Shown here one piece after another: positions 4,721 through 29,648 of a stretch of 64,000 bases of DNA. Numbering within the stretch: the stretch's first letter is position 1; the number at the start of each line of letters is the position of its first letter. The stretch comes from an uncultured Candidatus Cloacimonadota bacterium (GTDB taxonomy: Bacteria > Cloacimonadota > Cloacimonadia > Cloacimonadales > WRIO01). Both the position numbers and the translations under genes were made by a program. Location: assembly GCA_964573665.1 (NCBI GenBank), contig CAZNKI010000001.1:28583-92582 (forward strand), read 5' to 3'. Below the pieces are notes generated by a model. It did no database searches. It was not told where the DNA came from and saw nothing but the letters and a program-made list of their open reading frames with translations.

Positions 4721-5416
4721 TTATTGGGTATCATTCAAGAGATTAAAAATCAGTTCTAAGTTGATTTTAAAGTGAACAAGAGAACCTGATATCACTTTAT
4801 AGTCATAGATCAAAGCGTTTTTTTTCATATATTGCAGTGCTGAGAACACCTGTTCGTAATTTAAAGAATGTACTTTTGAGAATTCTGAAATTGAGATTGC
4901 GATATCATCTGGAACTGACAGGTTTTTAAGGTTATTCATAAGCAGAAGGCTGGCGATTTTCTTTAAGACGATCTTTTCATTGAGCCGACTCATTCTTTCA
5001 TTCATCATTGTTAAGTTTTGTGAGAATGAACGAAAGAGGCGGTACATGAGGTCTGGAATCTGTAAGAGCGCATTGAGAAAATCCTCATTTGAGAACTCAG
5101 CAAGGACGCCGTTTGCTGTTGATTTAACCGACGCTGTTCTTTTTTTATCCAGAAAGAGCCCCATTTCACCGAAGATATCACCTTCTTTGAGTTGTGCAAT
5201 AATCACTAAATCAGTAAGAATATCTTTTCTAAACACATCCAAAGTACCAGATAGGACGATAAATACTTTATCAGAAGGTCCGCCTTCAGTGACTATGATT
5301 TCATCTTTTCTGACGACTTTCTTCTTGCTGAATTTCATAATAAAGGAGACTGTATCGTCATATTTTTTTGATGACAGATCTCCAATAATTTCATAAAGGT
5401 TTGTGGGCATATTCAT
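4721..5416 (-). CDS. Cyclic-nucleotide-binding-domain protein (Crp/Fnr-like)
   Basis: The block EGDIFGEMGLF...RTASVKS is the canonical cNMP-binding beta-roll signature. The C-terminal part could be a wHTH, but that is not clear by eye. Confidence 0.65.
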   Translation of the reverse strand: MNMPTNLYEIIGDLSSKKYDDTVSFIMKFSKKKVVRKDEIIVTEGGPSDKVFIVLSGTLDVFRKDILTDLVIIAQLKEGDIFGEMGLFLDKKRTASVKSTANGVLAEFSNEDFLNALLQIPDLMYRLFRSFSQNLTMMNERMSRLNEKIVLKKIASLLLMNNLKNLSVPDDIAISISEFSKVHSLNYEQVFSALQYMKKNALIYDYKVISGSLVHFKINLELIFNLLNDTQ

Positions 5417-5466: not shown

Positions 5467-7131
5467 TTATAATGAGATTAAAATATCATTTTCAACTTTT
5501 AAAGCTAATTGGTTTATTTGATCAATTAATGATTGAGATTTAGTGATAATATCGTTTTTAAAGGCTTCATCATTAATACTTCCCATGTTGATTTTGATGT
5601 TGAGGAAAGCGGCTTTAGCTGCAGCATTTGCTGTGATTGCGGCTACACCTGCATCTGAAAGAGCGTTTTTATTGCCGATCTTTGCAATCTTTTCAGCAAG
5701 AATCACACAATCATTTGCAATTTCCAAAGTTTTGAATGGGATGAGAATAGCATTTTTTGTTGCTTCTTCCATCTTCGTGTTTCTCAATGCTTTTTCTTCA
5801 TCAGTGCTTTTTGGCAATCTCATGGCATCCATCATTTCATAGAAAGCTTGAGTATCATCATCGATTGCTCTAAGCGCTTCTGCTTTAACTTTTTGAGCAT
5901 CTTCAGCAATTGGTTTTGCCTTTTCCCAAACATTTTCATAACCTTTTTTATTGATGGTAAGGTTTGCCACCATTGCACTAAGTCCAGCTGACATTGAAGC
6001 ACATAAAGCTGCAACACTTCCGCCACCAGGAGCAGGAGAGTCTGTTGATAATTCGTCACAGAAACCTTCAAGCGTAAGATCAACCAATCTTTTTTCAGGT
6101 TGAATTGCATATTCAATAACTTTTTTATCAATATCAAAAGGTGCAAGTTCTGCTAGCCCCATTGACTGGATCGCTGTTTCAATGATCATACGATCAGGTA
6201 AACCTGCACTTTCGCCTAAGCGATTGAGGTAATATTTTCCTGCCATGATGATCGCATCTCTCGGGATCAGTCCAACAAGTTCGCTACCTGTTACCACTAA
6301 TCCTTTTTCTATTGCAAGTTCTCTAACTTTTTCGAGAACAAGGTGAGCAGGAGTGATATTATAATTGGTCAGATTCATACTGATCTGAGCACGATTGTAT
6401 TCATCAATATACCAGCCTACAGCTTTACAATGTTTGAATAAACCATCTTCAAACAGCTTTTCGCCATTTGCATCTTTCATGATTTTTCCATCAGCATCGC
6501 GTTTGAGTTTTCCTTTTTCACGAATCAGTTCAGCGATATCTTGAGCTTTCTTTTTATCTCTTGTATTCAGATTGATATTGTAAGCAATTAAGAATTCTCT
6601 AGCGCCAATTACAGTTGCGCCTGATTTTTCATTAAATGCGAAGGGACCAAAGTCAGGTCTCCAGTATTCATCTTTCATTTTGTCTGGTAAAGCTTCATAT
6701 TCGCCTTTTCTGATTTCAGCTAAATTGACTCTTTCAGGTTTTGAAGCAGAATATTCATAAAGATAAACAGGTATATTTAATTCTTCACCTACACGTTTTG
6801 CGAGCGTTTTTGATAGTTCGATACATTCTTCCATACTAACGCCAGTCACAGGAATGAAAGGGCAAACGTCTGTAGCACCCATTCTTGCGTGAGCACCGTG
6901 ATGTTTTGACATATCGATCAGTTCAGCTGCCTTTTTGATTGCCAGAAATGCTGCATCAACAACAGCTAAAGGTTCTCCAACAAATGTGAATACTGTTCGA
7001 TTGGTATCAGCACCTGGATCGACATCAAGTAAGGTGACATTTTTTACAGATTTAACCTGAGCTGCTATTGCATCTAAAATTGAACGGTCACGTCCTTCGC
7101 TGAAATTCGGAACACATTCGATGAGTTTCAT
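5467..7131 (-). CDS. ftcD: Glutamate formimidoyltransferase / formimidoyltetrahydrofolate cyclodeaminase (bifunctional FTCD)
   Basis: The N-terminus MKLIECVPNFSEGRD is the formiminotransferase signature. The C-terminal ~200 aa is an Ala-rich helical cyclodeaminase domain (DSPAPGGGSVAAL). SD GGAGGA lies upstream of ATG 7131. Confidence 0.9.
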   Translation of the reverse strand: MKLIECVPNFSEGRDRSILDAIAAQVKSVKNVTLLDVDPGADTNRTVFTFVGEPLAVVDAAFLAIKKAAELIDMSKHHGAHARMGATDVCPFIPVTGVSMEECIELSKTLAKRVGEELNIPVYLYEYSASKPERVNLAEIRKGEYEALPDKMKDEYWRPDFGPFAFNEKSGATVIGAREFLIAYNINLNTRDKKKAQDIAELIREKGKLKRDADGKIMKDANGEKLFEDGLFKHCKAVGWYIDEYNRAQISMNLTNYNITPAHLVLEKVRELAIEKGLVVTGSELVGLIPRDAIIMAGKYYLNRLGESAGLPDRMIIETAIQSMGLAELAPFDIDKKVIEYAIQPEKRLVDLTLEGFCDELSTDSPAPGGGSVAALCASMSAGLSAMVANLTINKKGYENVWEKAKPIAEDAQKVKAEALRAIDDDTQAFYEMMDAMRLPKSTDEEKALRNTKMEEATKNAILIPFKTLEIANDCVILAEKIAKIGNKNALSDAGVAAITANAAAKAAFLNIKINMGSINDEAFKNDIITKSQSLIDQINQLALKVENDILISL

Positions 7132-7350
7132 TCTTCCTCCATTGATTCTATTAATGAAATCTATTTTCTACATTGAATAATTTTTGTCCATAGTTTTTTT
7201 AATAACAAGAGCTTTGAATTATCAACGACCTTTCTAAAATCCATCCAACACATTGATTTTAACGACCAGCTCCGTTTTTTCGTAACACAACCAACCTGGT
7301 TGTGAACCGTAACGCGAGCTACCAGCTAGCGAAATCTTCTTTCTTGTTCT

Positions 7351-7699
7351 GCGAACATCCTTGTTTGCAGTACATGGTCAATAAATGATTCCTTAACAAC
7401 CATGGCAATCTGTTAGCTTGCTTTACGCGATACACGACCATCTCAAATCACTCCGGCACAAATATTTATACGAGCAGCTCCATTCCCCTCTGTGGAGGGG
7501 TGGACGCGTTAGCGGACGGGGTGGTCATGGAAAAAGTGCATCTTTTTTTGATGCCAGTAGTTCATCAAGGAGACCCCACGCTTCACGATGTTCCGCTCTG
7601 GGTGACAGATGATCGTTTTTGTAGTTTTGCCGGAATATTCCATCTATCGAAATCTCATACATCCCAAGGAGTGCACAACGAGAGCAATCTGTTTGCTCG
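7351..7699 (+). repeat. GC-rich structured element, copy A1 (candidate ncRNA or MITE-like repeat)
   Basis: About 349 bp and roughly 93-95% identical by eye to 9174-9521. It contains the 26-nt head CACGACCATCTCAAATCACTCCGGCA (7433-7458), the 46-nt GC core (7481-7526) with hairpin CCCCTC-TGTG-GAGGGG (7485-7500), and hairpin GCATC-T7-GATGC (7538-7554). TCCGGCA (head) is complementary to TGCCGGA (about 7630-7636). The ORF-track entries 7418..7612, 7500..7790 and 7609..7794 only translate this repeat. Confidence 0.7.
7403..7418 (+). promoter_or_regulatory. Sigma-54-like -24/-12 element (TGGCAA-N5-TAGCT) just upstream of the A1 head
   Basis: GG at 7404-7405 and GC at 7416-7417 are separated by 10 nt, as in the TGGCAC-N5-TTGCW consensus, with two mismatches to that consensus. 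The equivalent sequence in the other copies has AG instead of GG, so only this copy looks functional. Confidence 0.25.
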
Positions 7700-7711
7700 C
7701 TTTACGGGATT

Positions 7712-7744
7712 GGGTAGGCAAAAACCTGTCCACACATTTTTTTT
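7712..7744 (+). terminator. Possible terminator after element A1
   Basis: GGGTAGG (7712-7718) pairs with CCTGTCC (7725-7731) with two G-U pairs. A 5-nt spacer and then T8 (7737-7744) follow. The geometry is non-canonical. Confidence 0.35.
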
Positions 7745-7806
7745 CACAACTATGCGTCTGTCAAAGATCATTTTCGAGCTGTTTTTTTGAATGATCAAAA
7801 TCGATC

Positions 7807-7840
7807 AAAAAAAAACATGCCCCTCTATATATATAGGGGA
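7807..7840 (-). terminator. Possible minus-strand terminator (GC-clamped AT hairpin plus T9)
   Basis: Minus strand reads CCCCTATATATATAGAGGGG-CATG-TTTTTTTTT. It lies about 118 nt downstream of the small minus-strand ORF 7958..8110. Confidence 0.35.
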
Positions 7841-7957
7841 TCCTTCAAGCTATAAAGTATTTTAAAAGTATGACTTTTATGCATTCTAACTAAATGTAAA
7901 ATAGTCTGATGCAAAAAAAGTAAAAAATGAAATAATGATTTTTTTTTGAATGCATAT

Positions 7958-8110
7958 TTAGGCGTTATTGTTTATGTTAAAGAAATAAAAAATGACAGTA
8001 TCGTTTATTCTGCTTATACAGCTCAAGCTTATTAATCTCTCCGTCTCTTTCTTCTTGCGGATCTGATCCTCCTCGTAGGAAGTCAGTTCAGAAGTTTCAT
8101 TGCGAAACAT
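7958..8110 (-). CDS. Unannotated 50-aa ORF between the 22-bp array and the putative terminator (hypothetical; possibly a gene remnant)
   Basis: Hand translation gives MFRNETSELTSYEEDQIRKKKETERLISLSCISRINDTVIFYFFNINNNA. The first ~30 codons have coding-like composition and the rest is AT-rich. There is no clear SD, and the ORF is below the 60-aa track cutoff. Confidence 0.2.
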   Translation of the reverse strand: MFRNETSELTSYEEDQIRKKKETERLISLSCISRINDTVIFYFFNINNNA

Positions 8111-8327
8111 GCTAATCTTGTAATTTCTCAGAGATTAAATTACACATTTATCAAAAAAACATTTTACTAAACAAACATCTTCTGAATAAAAATCAAAAAA
8201 ATCTTCTTTTAAATCATCTCTCCATCATTTCCAAAATATTGGCACTCTTTTATACGTTCATCTTCTTAATCTTATCTTCTGATCGAGAGAAGAGATCTTA
8301 TTGGTGATTGATTGATAATAAGGATTT

Positions 8328-8635
8328 GACATTTTGTCACATATGAAGTGACATTTTGTCACCTATGATTTAACATTTTGTTCAGTATGATGCGACATTT
8401 TGTCACTTATGATTTAACATTTTGTTCAGTATGATGTGACATTTTGTTCAGTATGAAGTGACATTTTGTAACCTATGATTTAACATTTTGTTCAGTATTA
8501 TGCGACATTTTGTCACCTATGATTTAACATTTTGTTCAGTATGATGCGACATTTTGTTCAGTATGATTCGACATTTTGTTCAGTATGATGCGACATTTTG
8601 TCAACTATGATTTAACATTTTGTTCAGTATGTTCA
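8328..8635. repeat. Tandem array of 14 x 22 bp (iteron- or operator-like)
   Basis: Unit starts at 8328, 8350, 8372, ... 8614 have exact 22-bp phasing. Consensus is RACATTTTGTYMASTATGATKY. Two unit types occur, GACATTTTGTCACCTATGATTT and AACATTTTGTTCAGTATGATGC, often alternating as a 44-bp super-repeat. The invariant core ACA-TTT-TGT is a dyad, extended to GTGACA-TTT-TGTCAC in type 1. Confidence 0.95.
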
Positions 8636-9105
8636 TGAAATTTATTATGATTTTTAATAAAAAAATGGGATATTCAAAGAATAAAAAATATAAAATTATT
8701 TAGTTTTACTAGAAAACTGCGTTCAATCTGATCCTGATTTTCATTTCTATCACCCCTAAAAAGGTTATGATTTCTACGTTTTAATAGAGCTTTTTATCTA
8801 TGAGTTTCATAGGAACGGTAGATGATTAACACAGGCTGTGAGGACTGTGAACATGATCTCAGAAAAAGAGCGCCATCAGTACAACACCGAAATTCAGTCA
8901 TATTTTTCGTAAATATTTTATATTTTCTGCATCAAAGAATTTATAAGATATATAAAATAAATAGCTGAACCGAGAGCAAGACGGCAGTACTAAGAGCGTA
9001 TGCCTGAGCTGAATTAGCAAAATTGGTTATTTTTTATCTCAAAATGGGTGTCTGGAGATATTTGATATCAAGTATTTTTTCTGTTTCCTGTATCTAAGAA
9101 TTTAA

Positions 9106-9179
9106 ATGTAGGGGCAGGTTTTACGCCTGCCCAATCATAAGTAGGGGCGAACCTGTGTGTTCGCCATCGTTCAGCGAAC
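9106..9179. repeat. Two GTAGGGGC-initiated GC hairpins (REP-like)
   Basis: GGGCAGG-TTTTACG-CCTGCCC spans 9112-9132 and GGCGAAC-CTGTGT-GTTCGCC spans 9146-9165. An alternative pairing is GTTCGC (9159-9164) with GCGAAC (9174-9179). Confidence 0.8.
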
Positions 9180-9521
9180 ATCTCTGTTTGCAGTACATGC
9201 CCAAGCAATGATTCATTAACAACCATAGCAATCTGCTCCCTTGCTTTACGCGATACACGACCATCTCAAATCCCTCCGGCACAAAGATTTATACGAGCAG
9301 CTCCATTCCCCTCTGTGGAGGGGTGGACGCGTCAGCGGACGGGGTGGTCATGAAAAAATTGCATTTTTTTTGATGCCAGTAGTTCATCAAGGAGACCCCA
9401 CGCTTCACGATGTTCCGCTCTGGGTGACAGATGATCGTTTTTGTAGTTTTGCCGGAATATTACATCTATCGAAATCTCATACATCCCAAGGAGTGCACAA
9501 CGAGAGCAATCTGCTTGCTCG
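9174..9521 (+). repeat. GC-rich structured element, copy A2
   Basis: Collinear with A1: head at 9256-9281 and GC core at 9304-9349. ORF 9241..9576 is a translation of the repeat (PLWRGGRVSGRGGH comes from the GC core). Confidence 0.7.
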
Positions 9522-9533
9522 TGTTAAACGATA

Positions 9534-10048
9534 CACGACCATCTCATATCACTCCGGCAAATATATTATTAACTGAATCAGTCATTCAGAGCGGAACGTA
9601 GTGTAGCGTGGAATCTCCCATAGAACATCATGCATCATGTTTTTTATTGTAATCGCAAGTTTGTGAATTTTATTATTCGTGTAAGAAAGCATCCATGAAC
9701 TGAACTTAATCGATAAATAATAGATCATCAACGAGATAACAATGACCACCCCGTCCGCAGAAGGGATTTGAGATGCTCGTAATAATTTGCTTTGTTGGAG
9801 TGATTTGAGATTGATGTATTTTATGTTTTCAGATGTACGGCACTTCGTTTCGCACATCCTTACAAGTGTTAAAAGATTGTATTGTAAGATGTTAGATTAT
9901 TGTACAAGCAGACCACCCCGTCCGCTAACGCGTCCACCCCTCCACAGAGGGGAATGAAGATTTACGGCAAATTACCAAACTGTTAATGCAATATATATGC
10001 TATGTAGCAACACAACAAACAAAAAAGTACATTCCAAAAAGTTCAGTT
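9534..10048 (-). repeat. 515-bp repeat unit B1 (holds a diverged, inverted copy of the A element plus an extra GC core)
   Basis: Head at 9534-9559, truncated core at 9744-9766, inverted head-like GGAGTGATTTGAGAT at 9797-9811, and full core (reverse orientation) at 9911-9956. The reverse complement aligns block by block with A (details in findings). Confidence 0.75.
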
Positions 10049-10525
10049 CACGACCATCTCAAATCACTCCGGCATATCTATTATTAACTGAATCAGTCAT
10101 TCAGAGCGGAACGTAGTGTAGCGTGGAATCTCCCATAGAACATCATGCATCATGTTTTTTATTGTAATCGCAAGTTTGTGAATTTTATTATTCGTGTAAG
10201 AAAGCATCCATGAACTGAACTTAATCGATAAATAATAGATCATCAACGAGATAACAATGACCACCCCGTCCGCAGAAGGGATTTGAGATGCTCGTAATAA
10301 TTTGCTTTGTTGGAGTGATTTGAGATTGATGTATTTTATGTTTTCAGATGTACGGCACTTCGTTTCGCACATCCTTACAAGTGTTAAAAGATTGTATTGT
10401 AAGATGTTAGATTATTGTACAAGCAGACCACCCCGTCCGCTAACGCGTCCACCCCTCCACAGAAGGGAATGGAGATTTACGGCAAATTACCATGCTGAAA
10501 TGCAATTTATATTGTATGTAAAGCC
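10049..10525 (-). repeat. Repeat unit B2 (tandem duplicate of B1, period 515 bp)
   Basis: Head at 10049-10074, truncated core at 10259-10281, full core at 10426-10471. ORFs 9582..9857 and 10097..10372 are 100% identical at the protein level, so the duplication is recent. Similarity fades after about 10525. Confidence 0.75.
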
Positions 10526-10578
10526 AACTGGTGGACATGCAAAACTGTTTTTATTGACACATATATTCAAACAAAGGA

Positions 10579-10608
10579 TAAAAAAAGAGACGCCGTTTAA
10601 GCGTCTCT
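10579..10608 (-). terminator. Rho-independent terminator of htpG
   Basis: Minus strand reads AGAGACGC-TTAAACG-GCGTCTCT followed by T7, immediately after the htpG stop at 10625. Confidence 0.8.
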
Positions 10609-10624
10609 TCATAATATATAATGA

Positions 10625-12436
10625 TTAAATCATTTGAAGTATTTTGTTGGCTTTTTGGATAAATGCCTGTAATTCATCGCCAGTAAATCTTTTTTGTTCC
10701 AACATAGCCAAGTCATGAATATAATTAGCAATCAGAGAAGCATCTTCAGTTTTACCTTCGGCTTGAAGTGCAGAAACTTTTTTCACAGTAGGATTTTCTA
10801 CATTGATGACCAGAGTATGGTTTTTTAGCATATCCTGACCACCGAGTCCCTGATTCATAGCATGCATTTCCTGGAAGCGTCTCATAAATTCATCATAGAT
10901 GATCATACCAGGTATATTCTCGGTTTTTAAATGTTTCGCTTCAATGGTTACAGCTTCATTATTCAGTGCCTGTACGAAGGTTTCTTTGATTTTATCAGCT
11001 TCGTTTTTAGCATTTTCATCTATGTTTTCAGATTTATCTTTATCAACGAGTGTTTCGTTAATTTCTGAGTCAATTCGAACAAATCTAACGTTTGTTTTTT
11101 TGCTTTCAAGGTGTGAAAGTAAATGAGTATCTAAGATTGAATCACAGAAGATGACTTCCATTCCTTGATCTTTGATGAGGTTGAGCAATGATACCTGAGT
11201 ATTTTCGCTGATTCCATAGTAAATCTTTTTATGTTCATCTTCCTGAGGATTTCTTTCAAGATATTGATCAACCGTGATATAGTCGCCTTTTGAAGATTTA
11301 AAGATTAAGACATCTCTGATGGCTTCTGAAAAATCATCTTCAGTTAAAACGCCATATTTCACAAACTGGTTGATATCTTCCCAGTAAGATTCGTATTTTG
11401 AGCGATCTTCAGCAAAGGTGTTTTTGAAGTGATCAGCCACTTTTCTGATAATGTATTTTTTGATTTTCTGAACTTCTTTATCATTTTGAAGGAAGCTTCT
11501 CGAGACATTTAAAGGAATATCTGGTACGTCAATACCTCCTCGGAGCATCATGAGAAATTCTGGGATGAATTCTTTTAAATTGTCAGCGACAAAGACATTG
11601 TTGCAATAGAGTTTTACAGTTCCGCGAGTGAGTTCAGCATCATTTTTAATTTTTGGGAAATAGAGAATCCCTTTTAAGTTAAAAGGATAATCCAGATTTA
11701 AATGAATTTGGAATAGAGGATCTTGCCATTCGTGGAAGATCTTTTTATAGAACTCTTTGTATTCTTCGTCAGTGACATCATTTGGTTTTCTGTTCCAAAG
11801 CGCTTCTTTCTGATTGACGATGTCTTTGCCCAACATAATCGTAAATGGCATGAAATTACAATACTTTTCGAGCAATTCTTTCATCTTGAATTCTTCTAAG
11901 TATTCATCAGCCTCTGCATTAAGATGTAAGGTAATCGTGGTACCGACTTTTTTCCTTTTGCCTTTGGAAAGCGTGTATTCAGTAGAGCCATCACATTCCC
12001 AGAATGCCGGCTCAGCGCCTTCATTCATCGATAAAGAGTCGATGGTGACTTTTTCTGAAACCATAAAGGAAGAGTAAAATCCTAAACCAAAATGACCGAT
12101 GATGTTTGATTGCTGATCTTTGAATTTTTCAACAAAGTCTTCAGCACCAGAAAAGGCGATTTGGTTGATATACTTTTCGATTTCTTCTGCAGTCATACCG
12201 ATACCATAATCGATAATTTTGATGCAACGTTTCTTTTTATCTATTTCGATCTCAATTCTCAGTTCTTCAGGTTGAACATTGGTATCGAGAATTTTTCTTT
12301 TGTTCATTGCATCAATTGCATTGGAAACTAATTCACGAATAAAGATATCATGTTCAGAATACAACCATTTTTTGATAATAGGAAAGATATTCTCAGTGTG
12401 GATACTTAAAGATCCGTTTTTCTTTTCATTCGCCAT
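10625..12436 (-). CDS. htpG: Molecular chaperone HtpG (Hsp90)
   Basis: TENIFPIIKKWLYSEHDIFIRELVSNAIDA and GHFGLGFYSSFMV are Hsp90 N-domain signatures. The start is moved to ATG 12436 (MANEKK...), 6 nt after GGAGGT; the track start 12466 is an upstream extension. Confidence 0.9.
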   Translation of the reverse strand: MANEKKNGSLSIHTENIFPIIKKWLYSEHDIFIRELVSNAIDAMNKRKILDTNVQPEELRIEIEIDKKKRCIKIIDYGIGMTAEEIEKYINQIAFSGAEDFVEKFKDQQSNIIGHFGLGFYSSFMVSEKVTIDSLSMNEGAEPAFWECDGSTEYTLSKGKRKKVGTTITLHLNAEADEYLEEFKMKELLEKYCNFMPFTIMLGKDIVNQKEALWNRKPNDVTDEEYKEFYKKIFHEWQDPLFQIHLNLDYPFNLKGILYFPKIKNDAELTRGTVKLYCNNVFVADNLKEFIPEFLMMLRGGIDVPDIPLNVSRSFLQNDKEVQKIKKYIIRKVADHFKNTFAEDRSKYESYWEDINQFVKYGVLTEDDFSEAIRDVLIFKSSKGDYITVDQYLERNPQEDEHKKIYYGISENTQVSLLNLIKDQGMEVIFCDSILDTHLLSHLESKKTNVRFVRIDSEINETLVDKDKSENIDENAKNEADKIKETFVQALNNEAVTIEAKHLKTENIPGMIIYDEFMRRFQEMHAMNQGLGGQDMLKNHTLVINVENPTVKKVSALQAEGKTEDASLIANYIHDLAMLEQKRFTGDELQAFIQKANKILQMI

Positions 12437-27047: not shown

Positions 27048-27564
27048 TTTTCAAGTATTATGTTTAATATAGTACTTTTCGAATCAAATGATTTTTATGA
27101 ATTAGATTCAAAAAAATATATATTTAAAAATTATTCATGTATTTCAAAAGAGTTAAATTTAAGAATATTAGATGCTATATTTTTCGATATGTATAAATAA
27201 AGAAAATTTTGACAAAACAAAAAAAGTGCTTTACAAAAAAATGCAAATAATGAAAAAAAGTGTTATCTCTGAAGTTTATAAAGTCTAAGGTGATAAACTA
27301 TGACTCATAAACCAATGGGCTAAATCCGAAAAGATTTAACCTCCCGTCGATGGAAAGGAGTAAACATGAATGCAGTAAACTCGGTAGATAAGCCGATTAG
27401 TGATTCAATAGTAAAGCACATCAAAGGCTATCAAAAAAACAGTATTTGTAAATTATGCTATTTATTCAATGATCAACGATAATGAATTTTGTCAAAATAA
27501 AGCAAAAATTTATGTTATCAGCCATCATCAATCATTTTTATGTATATTCAATTGAAGAAAAAAA

Positions 27565-27866: not shown

Positions 27867-29648
27867 ATGAGTGACATGATTACAATTACAATTGATGGGA
27901 AAGTTATTGAGACTAAGTCAAGTAACACAATATTGCAAGCGGCAAAAGAGCATGGGATTTATATTCCTACGCTATGTTGGCATGAAGATTTAGCGCCAAC
28001 GTCAAACTGTGGGATTTGTGTAGTGTATGTGGACAAAAACACACAACCGAAGAGAGCATGCAGTACCCCAGTTTATCCAGGAATGAGTATTGTAAGCAAT
28101 AGCAAGGAATTACGATTATTCAGAAAAACATTACTTCAATTGTTTTTAGCGAATCATGACATTGATTGTCCTTCATGTAATGCAAATAATAAATGTGAAC
28201 TTCAAGAGTTATGCAACAATATGGGTGTAAAAATATTAGATGCGCCTGCCATTTATAAGAAAAAAGATTTAGATGAGAGTAGTATCGCTATAACAAGAGA
28301 TCCAAATAAATGTATCTCATGTGGACGCTGTGTAACCGTATGTAATGATGTGCAGGGAGTATCTGCTTTAACATTTGTTAATAGAGGTTTTGACGGTCAA
28401 GTGGATGTTGCTTTTTTAAATGGGTTAGGAAACAGTGCATGTATCAATTGTGGTCAATGTATCGTCTATTGCCCAACAGGTGCATTAAGTGAGCGTTCAC
28501 ATATTGATGAAGTATGGGAAGCCATTTATAATAATGACAAATATGTCATTGTTCAGGAAGCTCCAGCAATTCGTGCATCATTAGCCGATGAATTTGGCAT
28601 GAATATGGAAGACGTGACACCTGGAAAAATGTATGCAGCATTGAGAACCATAGGATTTGACGCTGTAATGGATACCAATTTTACAGCCGATTTAACGATT
28701 ATGGAAGAAGGAACTGAGCTTGTTGACCGAGTAAAGAAAAATCTGCCATTACCATTAATCACATCATGTTCACCAGGCTGGATCAAATATATGGAAACAT
28801 TCTATCCAGATTTAGCTCCTTACGTATCAACTGCAAAATCACCCATGTCCATGTTTGGCGTATTAAGTAAAACATATTATGCTCAGAAGAATAATATTGA
28901 TCCCGCAAAAATCGTATCTGTAGCGATCATGCCATGTACAGCGAAAAAATTTGAAGCGAATCGACCAGAATTAAGAGATTCTGGTTTTCAAGATACAGAC
29001 TATGTATTAACGACACGTGAGTTTATCAAATTAATCAAAGAAGCTGGTATTGATTTCAAGAATATTCAAGAGGAGCAAGCAGATCAAGGTATGAGTTTTT
29101 ATACTGGAGCTGGAACAATTTTTGGAGCTACAGGCGGGGTAATGGAAGCTGCAATTCGTTCAGCATTTACACTAATCACTGGAGATGAATTACAAGAAGT
29201 TGACATTAAAGTTGTCAGAGGGTTGGAAGGCATCAAAGAAGGAACTGTTGATATCCCAGGATTTGGATTGTTAAAAGTTGCTGTTGCGCACGGAACAAGT
29301 AATGCTCAGAAATTGATGGATAAAGTCAGAGCACAAATCAGTGAAACAGGTAAGTCAGAATATCATTTTATTGAGGTCATGGCATGTCCTGGCGGATGTG
29401 TGGGCGGAGGTGGCCAACCTTATGGTAACAGCTTAAGTAAGAGAGTAAAACGTGCTAATGCATTATATAAAGAAGATCAAAATATGAAGATCAGAAAATC
29501 ACATCACAATCCAGAAGTAGTAAAGATATATGAAGAATTTTTAGGTTCACCGAATTCACCATTAGCTCAGAAATTGTTACATACACATTATTTTGAGCGA
29601 TCACAGATTAATGGTCAAGTGGTGAAGGAAGTGACCCATAAGCATTAA
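27867..29648 (+). CDS. hydA: Monomeric [FeFe]-hydrogenase (clostridial-type, with N-terminal 2Fe-2S and accessory 4Fe-4S domains)
   Basis: H-cluster motifs TSCSPGW, MPCTAKKFE and EVMACPGGCVGGGGQP. The N-terminal region has CGICVV, HDIDCPSCNANNKC, CISCGRCVTVC and CINCGQCIVYCP. SD GGAGAG lies upstream. Confidence 0.9.
   Translation: MSDMITITIDGKVIETKSSNTILQAAKEHGIYIPTLCWHEDLAPTSNCGICVVYVDKNTQPKRACSTPVYPGMSIVSNSKELRLFRKTLLQLFLANHDIDCPSCNANNKCELQELCNNMGVKILDAPAIYKKKDLDESSIAITRDPNKCISCGRCVTVCNDVQGVSALTFVNRGFDGQVDVAFLNGLGNSACINCGQCIVYCPTGALSERSHIDEVWEAIYNNDKYVIVQEAPAIRASLADEFGMNMEDVTPGKMYAALRTIGFDAVMDTNFTADLTIMEEGTELVDRVKKNLPLPLITSCSPGWIKYMETFYPDLAPYVSTAKSPMSMFGVLSKTYYAQKNNIDPAKIVSVAIMPCTAKKFEANRPELRDSGFQDTDYVLTTREFIKLIKEAGIDFKNIQEEQADQGMSFYTGAGTIFGATGGVMEAAIRSAFTLITGDELQEVDIKVVRGLEGIKEGTVDIPGFGLLKVAVAHGTSNAQKLMDKVRAQISETGKSEYHFIEVMACPGGCVGGGGQPYGNSLSKRVKRANALYKEDQNMKIRKSHHNPEVVKIYEEFLGSPNSPLAQKLLHTHYFERSQINGQVVKEVTHKH

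Follow-up and report, generated by a model that had tools for sequence, protein, structure and literature searches.

Three kinds of described system come closest to the locus studied here. In repetitive extragenic palindrome (REP) clusters, bacterial interspersed mosaic elements (BIMEs) and REPINs (REP doublets forming hairpins), the palindromes are served in trans by RAYT transposases (PMC3116915, PMC3337134). [quoted passage not shown] We analyzed a stretch of 64,000 nt (the window) from an uncultured Candidatus Cloacimonadota bacterium (contig CAZNKI010000001.1), in which two directly repeated segments, A1 and A2, and two related units, B1 and B2, lie in a 3.5-kb gap without credible open reading frames (ORFs) (7132-10624). 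The gap runs from the start of the formiminotransferase-cyclodeaminase (FTCD) gene to the terminator of htpG. We conclude, with moderate confidence, that A1 and A2 are paralogues of each other and represent a non-coding repeat unit specific to this lineage, not a gene. The whole arrangement is best accounted for, in our judgment and with the same reserve, by duplications and inversions that took place locally within a nest of miniature palindromic elements, with A1 and A2 acting only as recombination substrates.

A1 (7346-7710, plus strand) and A2 (9169-9531, plus strand) are indeed two direct copies, as proposed in a first-pass annotation of this DNA. A comparison by blastn aligned 7346-7699 with 9169-9521 at 94.4% identity over 354 nt (E = 5.6e-158), and an alignment with MAFFT extended the homology slightly, to about 7340/7346-7710 and 9163/9169-9531. 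A1 begins with a leader (7346-7404), which is followed by one 279-bp unit and a truncated copy of the next boundary motif; the tail of A2, which is 94% identical to A1, continues directly into B1. Both copies point in the same direction and bracket a 1.46-kb AT-rich spacer with an array of 22-bp repeats, also as described before. The reported clustering of differences on the 5' side was recovered: 12 of the 22 differences in 7346-7704 fall into the first 85 nt (86% identity), and the other 10 are spread over the remaining 274 nt (96.4% identity). The longest identical run measures 97 nt. With 46-47% G+C, A is G+C-rich for this genome (32.6% in the window and 30.6% in the spacer).

Both local hairpins ascribed to A were found, CCCCTC-TGTG-GAGGGG at 7485-7500 and GCATC-T7-GATGC at 7538-7554; the latter has one pair fewer in A2 and a weak terminator-like score on the minus strand. 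The sequences TCCGGCA (7452) and TGCCGGA (7628) are also present, but the long-range helix in which they were thought to enclose these hairpins was not predicted by RNAalifold. Nor did the description of the element as hairpin-dense hold, with 2 inverted 7-mers in A1 vs 3.2 +/- 2.2 in shuffled sequences.

The motif GCAATCTG..GCTTTACG, here termed h, had been suspected to mark unit boundaries, and it does so with a head-to-head distance of 279 bp in A1 and 278 bp in A2. It is located on the plus strand at 7405-7427 and again at 7684-7706, 9228-9250 and 9506-9528. The head and tail boundaries of A1 (7396-7431 vs 7675-7710) match at 83% over 36 nt (blastn), and the tail copy in A2 runs straight into the next unit, B1. 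Close to h lies module X (ACGACCATCTCAAATCACTCCGGCA; 7434-7458, plus strand), the left inverted repeat of the unit. X is about 26 nt long and has direct copies at 9257, 9535 and 10050, which makes 4 direct-orientation matches in the window vs 0 expected. Together, h and X make up 71 nt that are directly repeated in A1, A2 and B1 (80-92% identity). The right inverted repeat, X', persists in A-type units as a degenerate remnant, TGCCGGA (7628-7634, plus strand).

Including A1 and A2, the gap holds four related units, plus fragments. B1 (9534-10006, plus strand) comprises X (9535-9559), an AT-rich insert, X' (9782-9811) and inverted versions of two short modules of A that are treated below, Q (Q', 9577-9618) and P (truncated P', 9742-9761); a full inverted P follows X' at 9911-9959. 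The AT-rich insert contains a sigma-70-like site, TTGTAA-18-TATTAT (9647-9676). B2 (10049-10520, plus strand) is a tandem copy of B1 with its full inverted P at 10426-10474, and it ends 50 bp before the htpG terminator. The two B units are 97.5% identical (difference 1-2.5%) and follow each other with a period of 515 bp.

The interior blocks of B run opposite to those of A (7440-7503 vs 9811-9746, 79% identity; 7569-7610 vs 9618-9577, 81%; both by blastn), and the 49-nt P block of A is 96-98% complementary to 9911-9959 and 10426-10474. When A is compared to the reverse complement of B, the series X, P, Q and TGCCGGA is colinear, and in B it goes on into a full inverted X. The identity of the A and B interiors is patchy (62% overall). 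In B1 and B2, X and X' form a perfect 15-bp inverted repeat (ATCTCAAATCACTCC), or one of about 27 bp if mismatches are allowed. The unit is thus h-X-interior-X' of about 279 bp, and B is a unit with its interior inverted between X and X'. B has also undergone a deletion between the two direct GGGGTGG repeats in P and contains the AT-rich insert of about 120 bp.

The pattern of X returned 0 exact matches in IMG/VR, in 185,579 species genomes (one each) and in the JGI metagenomes. Strains with 99% FTCD identity have the same start of A1, with contigs that end inside A1. In a strain with 97% FTCD identity, unrelated DNA begins about 75 bp upstream of FTCD and ends in a different P copy, and relatives at 78-87% FTCD identity carry other genes about 90-130 bp from FTCD and no A-like DNA. 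The confinement of A-type DNA to the closest strains indicates that the gap is young and turns over quickly. Within the window no dispersed copies of the unit were found beyond the gap, all X copies being located at 7.4-10.3 kb. A blastn comparison of the 3.5-kb gap with the loci fetched by then matched P only; the pattern scan for Q came later. The first-pass annotation had named an occurrence at this site only as an outcome that would speak against its structured element. This is what we found for the whole unit; P and Q, by contrast, recur widely, and the short hairpins within them vary with compensatory changes. The region upstream of FTCD is a hot spot of rearrangement (window 7132-7345 compared to L008:1-435, L011, L012 and L013), and three more distant relatives each have a different gene beside FTCD.

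Recombination between A1 and A2, which had been suggested as a way to excise or amplify the array, is plausible in view of the 97-nt identical run and of an allele mosaic in a 99%-related strain (L004). This strain carries A2 alleles at 7361, 7404, 7413, 7415 and 7416 in an otherwise A1-type copy, and the stretch of identity that separates the A1-type from the A2-type allele blocks is not long enough to create a chimeric path in a k = 31 assembly. Therefore, we read A1 and A2 as apparently inert homology that undergoes gene conversion.

From these comparisons we infer the following history. An ancestral unit, already with P and Q fragments, would have duplicated in tandem, and one interior would then have flipped by recombination between X and X', giving rise to the B type. 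The B unit would in turn have duplicated in tandem to B1 and B2. The 365-bp A segment would have been copied across the array-bearing AT-rich spacer, or the spacer would have come between two A copies, which now differ by about 6%. Today, A1 and A2 would represent just 365 bp of homology exchanging sequence by gene conversion, and RecA-type recombination could delete or tandemly amplify the 1.8-kb module of A and spacer.

A coding function for the units found no support. A1 and A2 share no conserved ORF; the only long frame, of 111 aa in A2, is interrupted by a T7/T8 indel. Pfam gave no accepted match on eight ORFs, and a single hit to HNH_4 (E = 0.17) was judged to be due to chance. Translated comparison by tblastx against the window and all fetched loci, together with six-frame translations, yielded no coding signal, and neither the 91-aa nor the 50-aa ORF of the junction and spacer is on record in public contigs. 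A search of A and B against Rfam resulted in nothing at gathering score or at E <= 10, and Rfam matched no family on loci with canonical copies of P and Q. The multi-stem RNA domain that the first-pass annotation had envisaged received no support. Compared to shuffled sequences, the fold z-score was -0.22 for A1 on the plus strand, -1.24 for A1 on the minus strand and 0.04 for A2 on the plus strand, and RNAalifold on A1, A2 and the reverse complements of B1 and B2 gave -14.8 kcal/mol with one compensatory pair.

Several observations weigh against inert repeats as the full explanation. B1 folds far better than shuffled sequences (z = -3.5), which we attribute to the X/X' inverted-repeat structure; the A units, with their right repeat decayed to TGCCGGA, do not. 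A terminator-like hairpin with T8 follows A1 on the plus strand (7711-7745), and B combines the sigma-70-like promoter match with 49-nt stretches that are 96-98% complementary to A. The A core (7431-7704) is 96.4% conserved between the copies vs 86% for the leader; gene conversion explains this, and selection would do so too. P, Q and a third hairpin module, R (see below), usually do not occur together elsewhere, unlike here. Moreover, dispersed copies of the unit may lie in the genome outside the 64 kb examined, and a transcript may cover the units. The A-B complementarity, the promoter match in B and the B1 fold make a sense/antisense RNA pair conceivable, in which A and B would be small-RNA genes in several copies, sponge-like or toxin-antitoxin-like, with A transcribed on the plus strand and B transcripts starting from the internal promoter-like site of each B unit. 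The Q blocks (81% complementary over 42 nt), the hairpin after A1 and the better conserved A core would fit such a pair. We nevertheless consider it unlikely. Complementarity between A and B is a trivial outcome of inverted copies of the same DNA, no Rfam family was matched, and A1 and A2 fold like shuffled sequence. The terminator-like hairpin is found after A1 only and is missing after A2, B1 and B2, consensus promoter matches in the region are rarer than in shuffled sequences (10 vs 13.7), we saw no small ORF with a ribosome-binding site that would plausibly encode a toxin, and the unit is absent from the strain at 97% FTCD identity.

Readings that invoke mobility or switching have to be judged against the gene content of the window: among ORFs of at least 150 aa, scanned over 0.5-54.6 kb, we found no integrase, transposase, rep, reverse transcriptase, recombinase or RAYT gene. 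One of these readings takes the units as invertible DNA switches (invertons) or their relics, in which site-specific recombination would flip the X-X' segment of about 280 bp and reorient the promoter-like element of B. It would explain why h and X are direct in A1, A2 and B1 and the interior blocks are inverted in B, and the X/X' repeat, perfect over 15 bp and extendable to about 27 bp, agrees together with the segment size with programmed inversions (PMC9881135); the promoter-like site also lies within the segment. However, with interiors about 62% identical the flip must be old and not ongoing, the right repeat of the A units has decayed, no recombinase gene was among the scanned ORFs, and neither orientation has a gene downstream, htpG being convergent and equipped with its own terminator. 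We therefore regard an inverton as improbable. We give similarly little credence to the idea that A1, spacer and A2 are the footprint of a small circular iteron-bearing element with one copy of A, which would have entered by Campbell-type integration, through a single homologous crossover at a chromosomal A, and could leave again through A1 x A2 recombination. The 365-bp direct repeats around a 1.46-kb AT-rich segment, its G+C content of 30.6%, unlike that of A, the iteron- or centromere-like layout of 14 contiguous 22-bp repeats and the sequence exchange between A1 and A2 would all be in line with it. On the other side, the spacer is devoid of ORFs (rep and par included) and of DnaA boxes, spacer and array have no counterpart in plasmids, phages or IMG/VR, a gene-less circle of 1.8 kb would need all functions in trans, and the 6% divergence of A1 and A2 implies that any such event is old. 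The att-like duplication considered in the first-pass annotation is not supported either: the repeat measures 365 bp with 6% divergence, the spacer is ORF-free, no integrase was among the scanned ORFs and no tRNA was detected in the window. The least credible alternative is that assembly put one repeat in two places of a metagenome-assembled contig, and such an artefact can be almost dismissed. The source is probably metagenome-assembled and every short-read contig here breaks within the repeats, but A1 and A2 differ at 22 positions and have distinct flanks, and independent contigs from two runs end exactly at the onset of 31-mers shared by A1/A2 or B1/B2 (L001 at window position 7446, L010 at 10434), which indicates that both copies were present in those samples. 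A diversity-generating retroelement was also rejected; the 22 differences span all four bases and are not adenine-specific, and the scanned ORFs include no reverse transcriptase gene.

In the favored account, local duplication and inversion took place among miniature palindromic elements, and three of these can be recognized in and around A. Judging from sequence comparison, the CCCCTC/GAGGGG hairpin of A is part of a two-hairpin element of about 48 nt, which we term P. Its layout is AATTCCCCTCC-loop-GGAGGGGTGG, followed by a covarying stem of 3-6 bp with a short loop and then by ACGGGGTGGT. The copy in A1 (7478-7526, plus strand) consists of hairpin 1 (CCCCTC-TGTG-GAGGGG), the GGGGTGG box, hairpin 2 (CGC-GTTA-GCG) and the ACGGGGTGGT box, and the copy in A2 (9301-9349, plus strand) has the same parts. 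Hairpin 2 is present here in a short variant that also occurs in L003 and L086. Four full copies belong to P (7494-7525 and 9317-9348 on the plus strand, 9943-9912 and 10458-10427 on the minus strand), in addition to 2 truncated ones, and within the 64-kb window P is confined to this gap.

A pattern scan that left the stem-loop unspecified detected P in 11 viral contigs and, over many phyla, in at least 119 genome stretches; the figures from genomes rest on the matches listed. Hosts among the matches listed are Cyanobacteria, Acidobacteriota, Planctomycetota, Beta- and Gammaproteobacteria, Clostridia, Bacteroidota, Chlorobi, Fibrobacterota, Actinobacteria, a bacterium of the candidate phyla radiation (CPR) and a Cloacimonadales genome. 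P is nearly identical in sequence from Cyanobacteria to Acidobacteriota, Proteobacteria, Clostridia, CPR bacteria and phages. Across 135 distinct copies, hairpin 2 is 91% paired vs 56% in shuffled sequences and 20-41% in slid controls, with 174 double-change cells and 33 distinct stems. Its loops are mostly GAA, GTA or GCA triloops. GNA triloops closed by C-G typically occur in DNA mini-hairpins of very high stability, a hint that P may act as a hairpin in single-stranded DNA. P copies often form inverted pairs or arrays, and some are located in frame inside ORFs, namely a phage portal ORF (L003:1549-1604), hsdR (L049) and a uvrA-like gene (L061). Peptides encoded by in-frame P, e.g. TTPSAKASTPP and NSPPAEGW, probably give rise to odd segments in predicted proteins.

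An ORF for a DUF559 protein (PF04480, Vsr-like nuclease) was found between inverted P copies, at a distance of 0-257 bp from P, in 6 of 130 P loci. DUF559 genes bracketed in this way were seen at L049:1915-2607, L100:1125-2379, L067:2230-3108, L118:537-625, L048:6652-7635 and L194:61-499. In the Cloacimonadales genome (L049), the whole module of P and DUF559 is inserted within the type I restriction gene hsdR. When DUF559 relatives were fetched independently of P, the close one (59% identity) was bracketed by inverted P and three distant ones were not. All-against-all clustering of ORFs revealed no dominant protein family beside P, DUF559 having surfaced only in a targeted search, and tblastn detected no DUF559 gene or remnant in the window. 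The P-DUF559 module looks like a tiny nuclease-encoding selfish element of which P would form the ends. A wider proposal is possible but tentative: P would constitute the inverted ends of an undescribed class of tiny selfish elements with DUF559 as their sole gene, solitary and paired P copies would be non-autonomous derivatives of them that function as hairpins in single-stranded DNA and might also insert in frame into genes, and the A/B cluster would have served them as a landing pad and recombination playground. We found no published description of P in the literature searched, which does not prove that P is undescribed. If the link between P and DUF559 is true, it provides a concrete DNA substrate for nucleases with a domain of unknown function and an explanation for recurrent spurious peptides in metagenome annotations.

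The second module, Q, is located at 7569-7610 (plus strand) and has a stem ACCC/GGGT around the core CCACGCT.CAC...GTTCCGCTCTG. Further copies lie at 9391-9432 on the plus strand and at 9577-9618 and 10092-10133 on the minus strand. The core is kept between A and B and was found in 15 metagenome contigs (L143-L157), mostly of 33-37% G+C. Elsewhere, Q is the 3' part of a hairpin element of about 95 nt that is closed by TTTGTCATTC/GAATGACAAA; the window has only this 3' part. The flanking stem covaries (ATTC:GAAT, ATCC:GGAT and ACCC:GGGT, the last being that of A).

Two R hairpins, GTAG-headed and REP-like, abut the left end of A2 on the plus strand (GTAGGGGCAGG..CCTGCCC at 9110-9133 and GTAGGGGCGAAC..GTTCGCC at 9141-9166), and a degenerate third copy stands at the start of the A leader. 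The motif of the second R hairpin was present in 36 IMG/VR contigs (L158-L193), often as a perfect palindrome and in one contig (L192) as five tandem copies.

In comparison to the described systems, P resembles REPs and REPINs as a short G+C-rich intergenic hairpin element that occurs in inverted pairs and arrays with one master sequence per genome, and its copies likewise bracket a nuclease-type gene. It differs from REPs in that two hairpins, along with two conserved G-rich boxes, take the place of a GTAG head, and in its near-constant sequence across phyla, whereas REPs are lineage-specific. The bracketed gene encodes DUF559 (Vsr-like PD-(D/E)XK) and not an IS200-like tyrosine transposase as in REPIN-RAYT systems. 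Of the elements in the gap, the R hairpins at 9110-9166 have the REP layout of a GTAG head and an imperfect palindrome, unlike P, Q and the whole A unit. A1/A2 is not a REP but a 365-bp segmental duplication that contains such elements. The B units are MITE-like in that they measure about 280 bp, are non-coding and carry terminal inverted repeats (X/X'), and P recalls the Rickettsia palindromic elements by its occasional position in frame inside genes. Unlike for MITEs, we saw no target-site duplications, and no dispersed copies of the units in the 64 kb or in the three collections; A1/A2 and B1/B2 share their flanks, which indicates that they arose by segmental duplication and not by transposition.

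The inverted repeats of 15-27 bp around a segment of about 280 bp, both orientations relative to h and X and the promoter-like match are reminiscent of invertible promoter segments. Here, however, the two orientations are old, diverged paralogues and not alleles, with no recombinase found nearby and no gene to regulate. As in Campbell-type integration and other substrates of amplification, long direct repeats bracket a distinct segment, the copies exchange sequence, and A1 x A2 recombination would excise or amplify what lies between them; the bracketed segment, though, is gene-less, and any free circle would be hypothetical. The locus also holds a caution, as here, in an AT-rich chromosome, a repeat that stands out by its G+C-richness and its hairpins marks neither an RNA gene nor the boundary of a mobile element. 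This repeat nest evolves fast, varies between strains, interrupts short-read assemblies and is open to rearrangement by homologous recombination, and parts of the repeat belong to miniature hairpin elements common to very distant bacteria and phages.

The spacer between A1 and A2 (7711-9168) is AT-rich (30.6% G+C) and ORF-free, and it contains the 22-bp array as well as terminator-like hairpins. The array (8323-8631) comprises 14 contiguous copies with 78% matches and a super-period of 66 bp, in which units with a palindromic core (GTGACATTTTGTCAC) alternate with units bearing TTAACATTTTGTTCA. No match to it was obtained in IMG/VR (by pattern), plasmids or phages. The gene for a cNMP-binding (Crp/Fnr-like) protein lies at a distance of 3 kb (4721-5416), and on this ground the array might be a protein-binding array. 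A plasmid or phage origin of A or of the spacer was also considered and dropped, blastn in 'distant' mode having returned nothing meaningful. The terminator-like hairpin directly to the right of A1, outside the repeat (TGGGTAGG..CCTGTCCA plus T8; 7711-7745, plus strand), faces a second one on the minus strand (CCCCTATATATATAGAGGGG plus T9; 7840-7806). If the region is transcribed, the two would close convergent transcription units.

With its G+C content of 32.6%, the window represents a low-G+C chromosome segment of a Candidatus Cloacimonadota member. The closest named relatives of its FTCD are proteins from metagenome-assembled genomes of 'Candidatus Cloacimonetes', the window encodes proteins with type IX secretion system (T9SS) sorting domains, and the ORFs of at least 150 aa in the scanned range encode housekeeping proteins. 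The gap is flanked by the FTCD gene (5467-7131, minus strand) and by htpG (10625-12436, minus strand), which is convergent to the gap. Neither tRNA nor transfer-messenger RNA genes were detected in the window. A chromosomal origin at the repeats was discarded, as 7.1-10.6 kb contains no cluster of DnaA boxes. The cumulative GC skew (window 1-34000) has a shallow minimum near 12-13 kb followed by a steady rise; the rise occurs despite the minus-strand genes at 14-27 kb, and minus-strand genes flank the minimum on both sides. Further downstream, we identified a molybdenum-cofactor riboswitch (RF01055, 50.1 bits, E = 5e-9) at 27255-27376 on the plus strand, upstream of a [FeFe]-hydrogenase-like gene (27867-29648).

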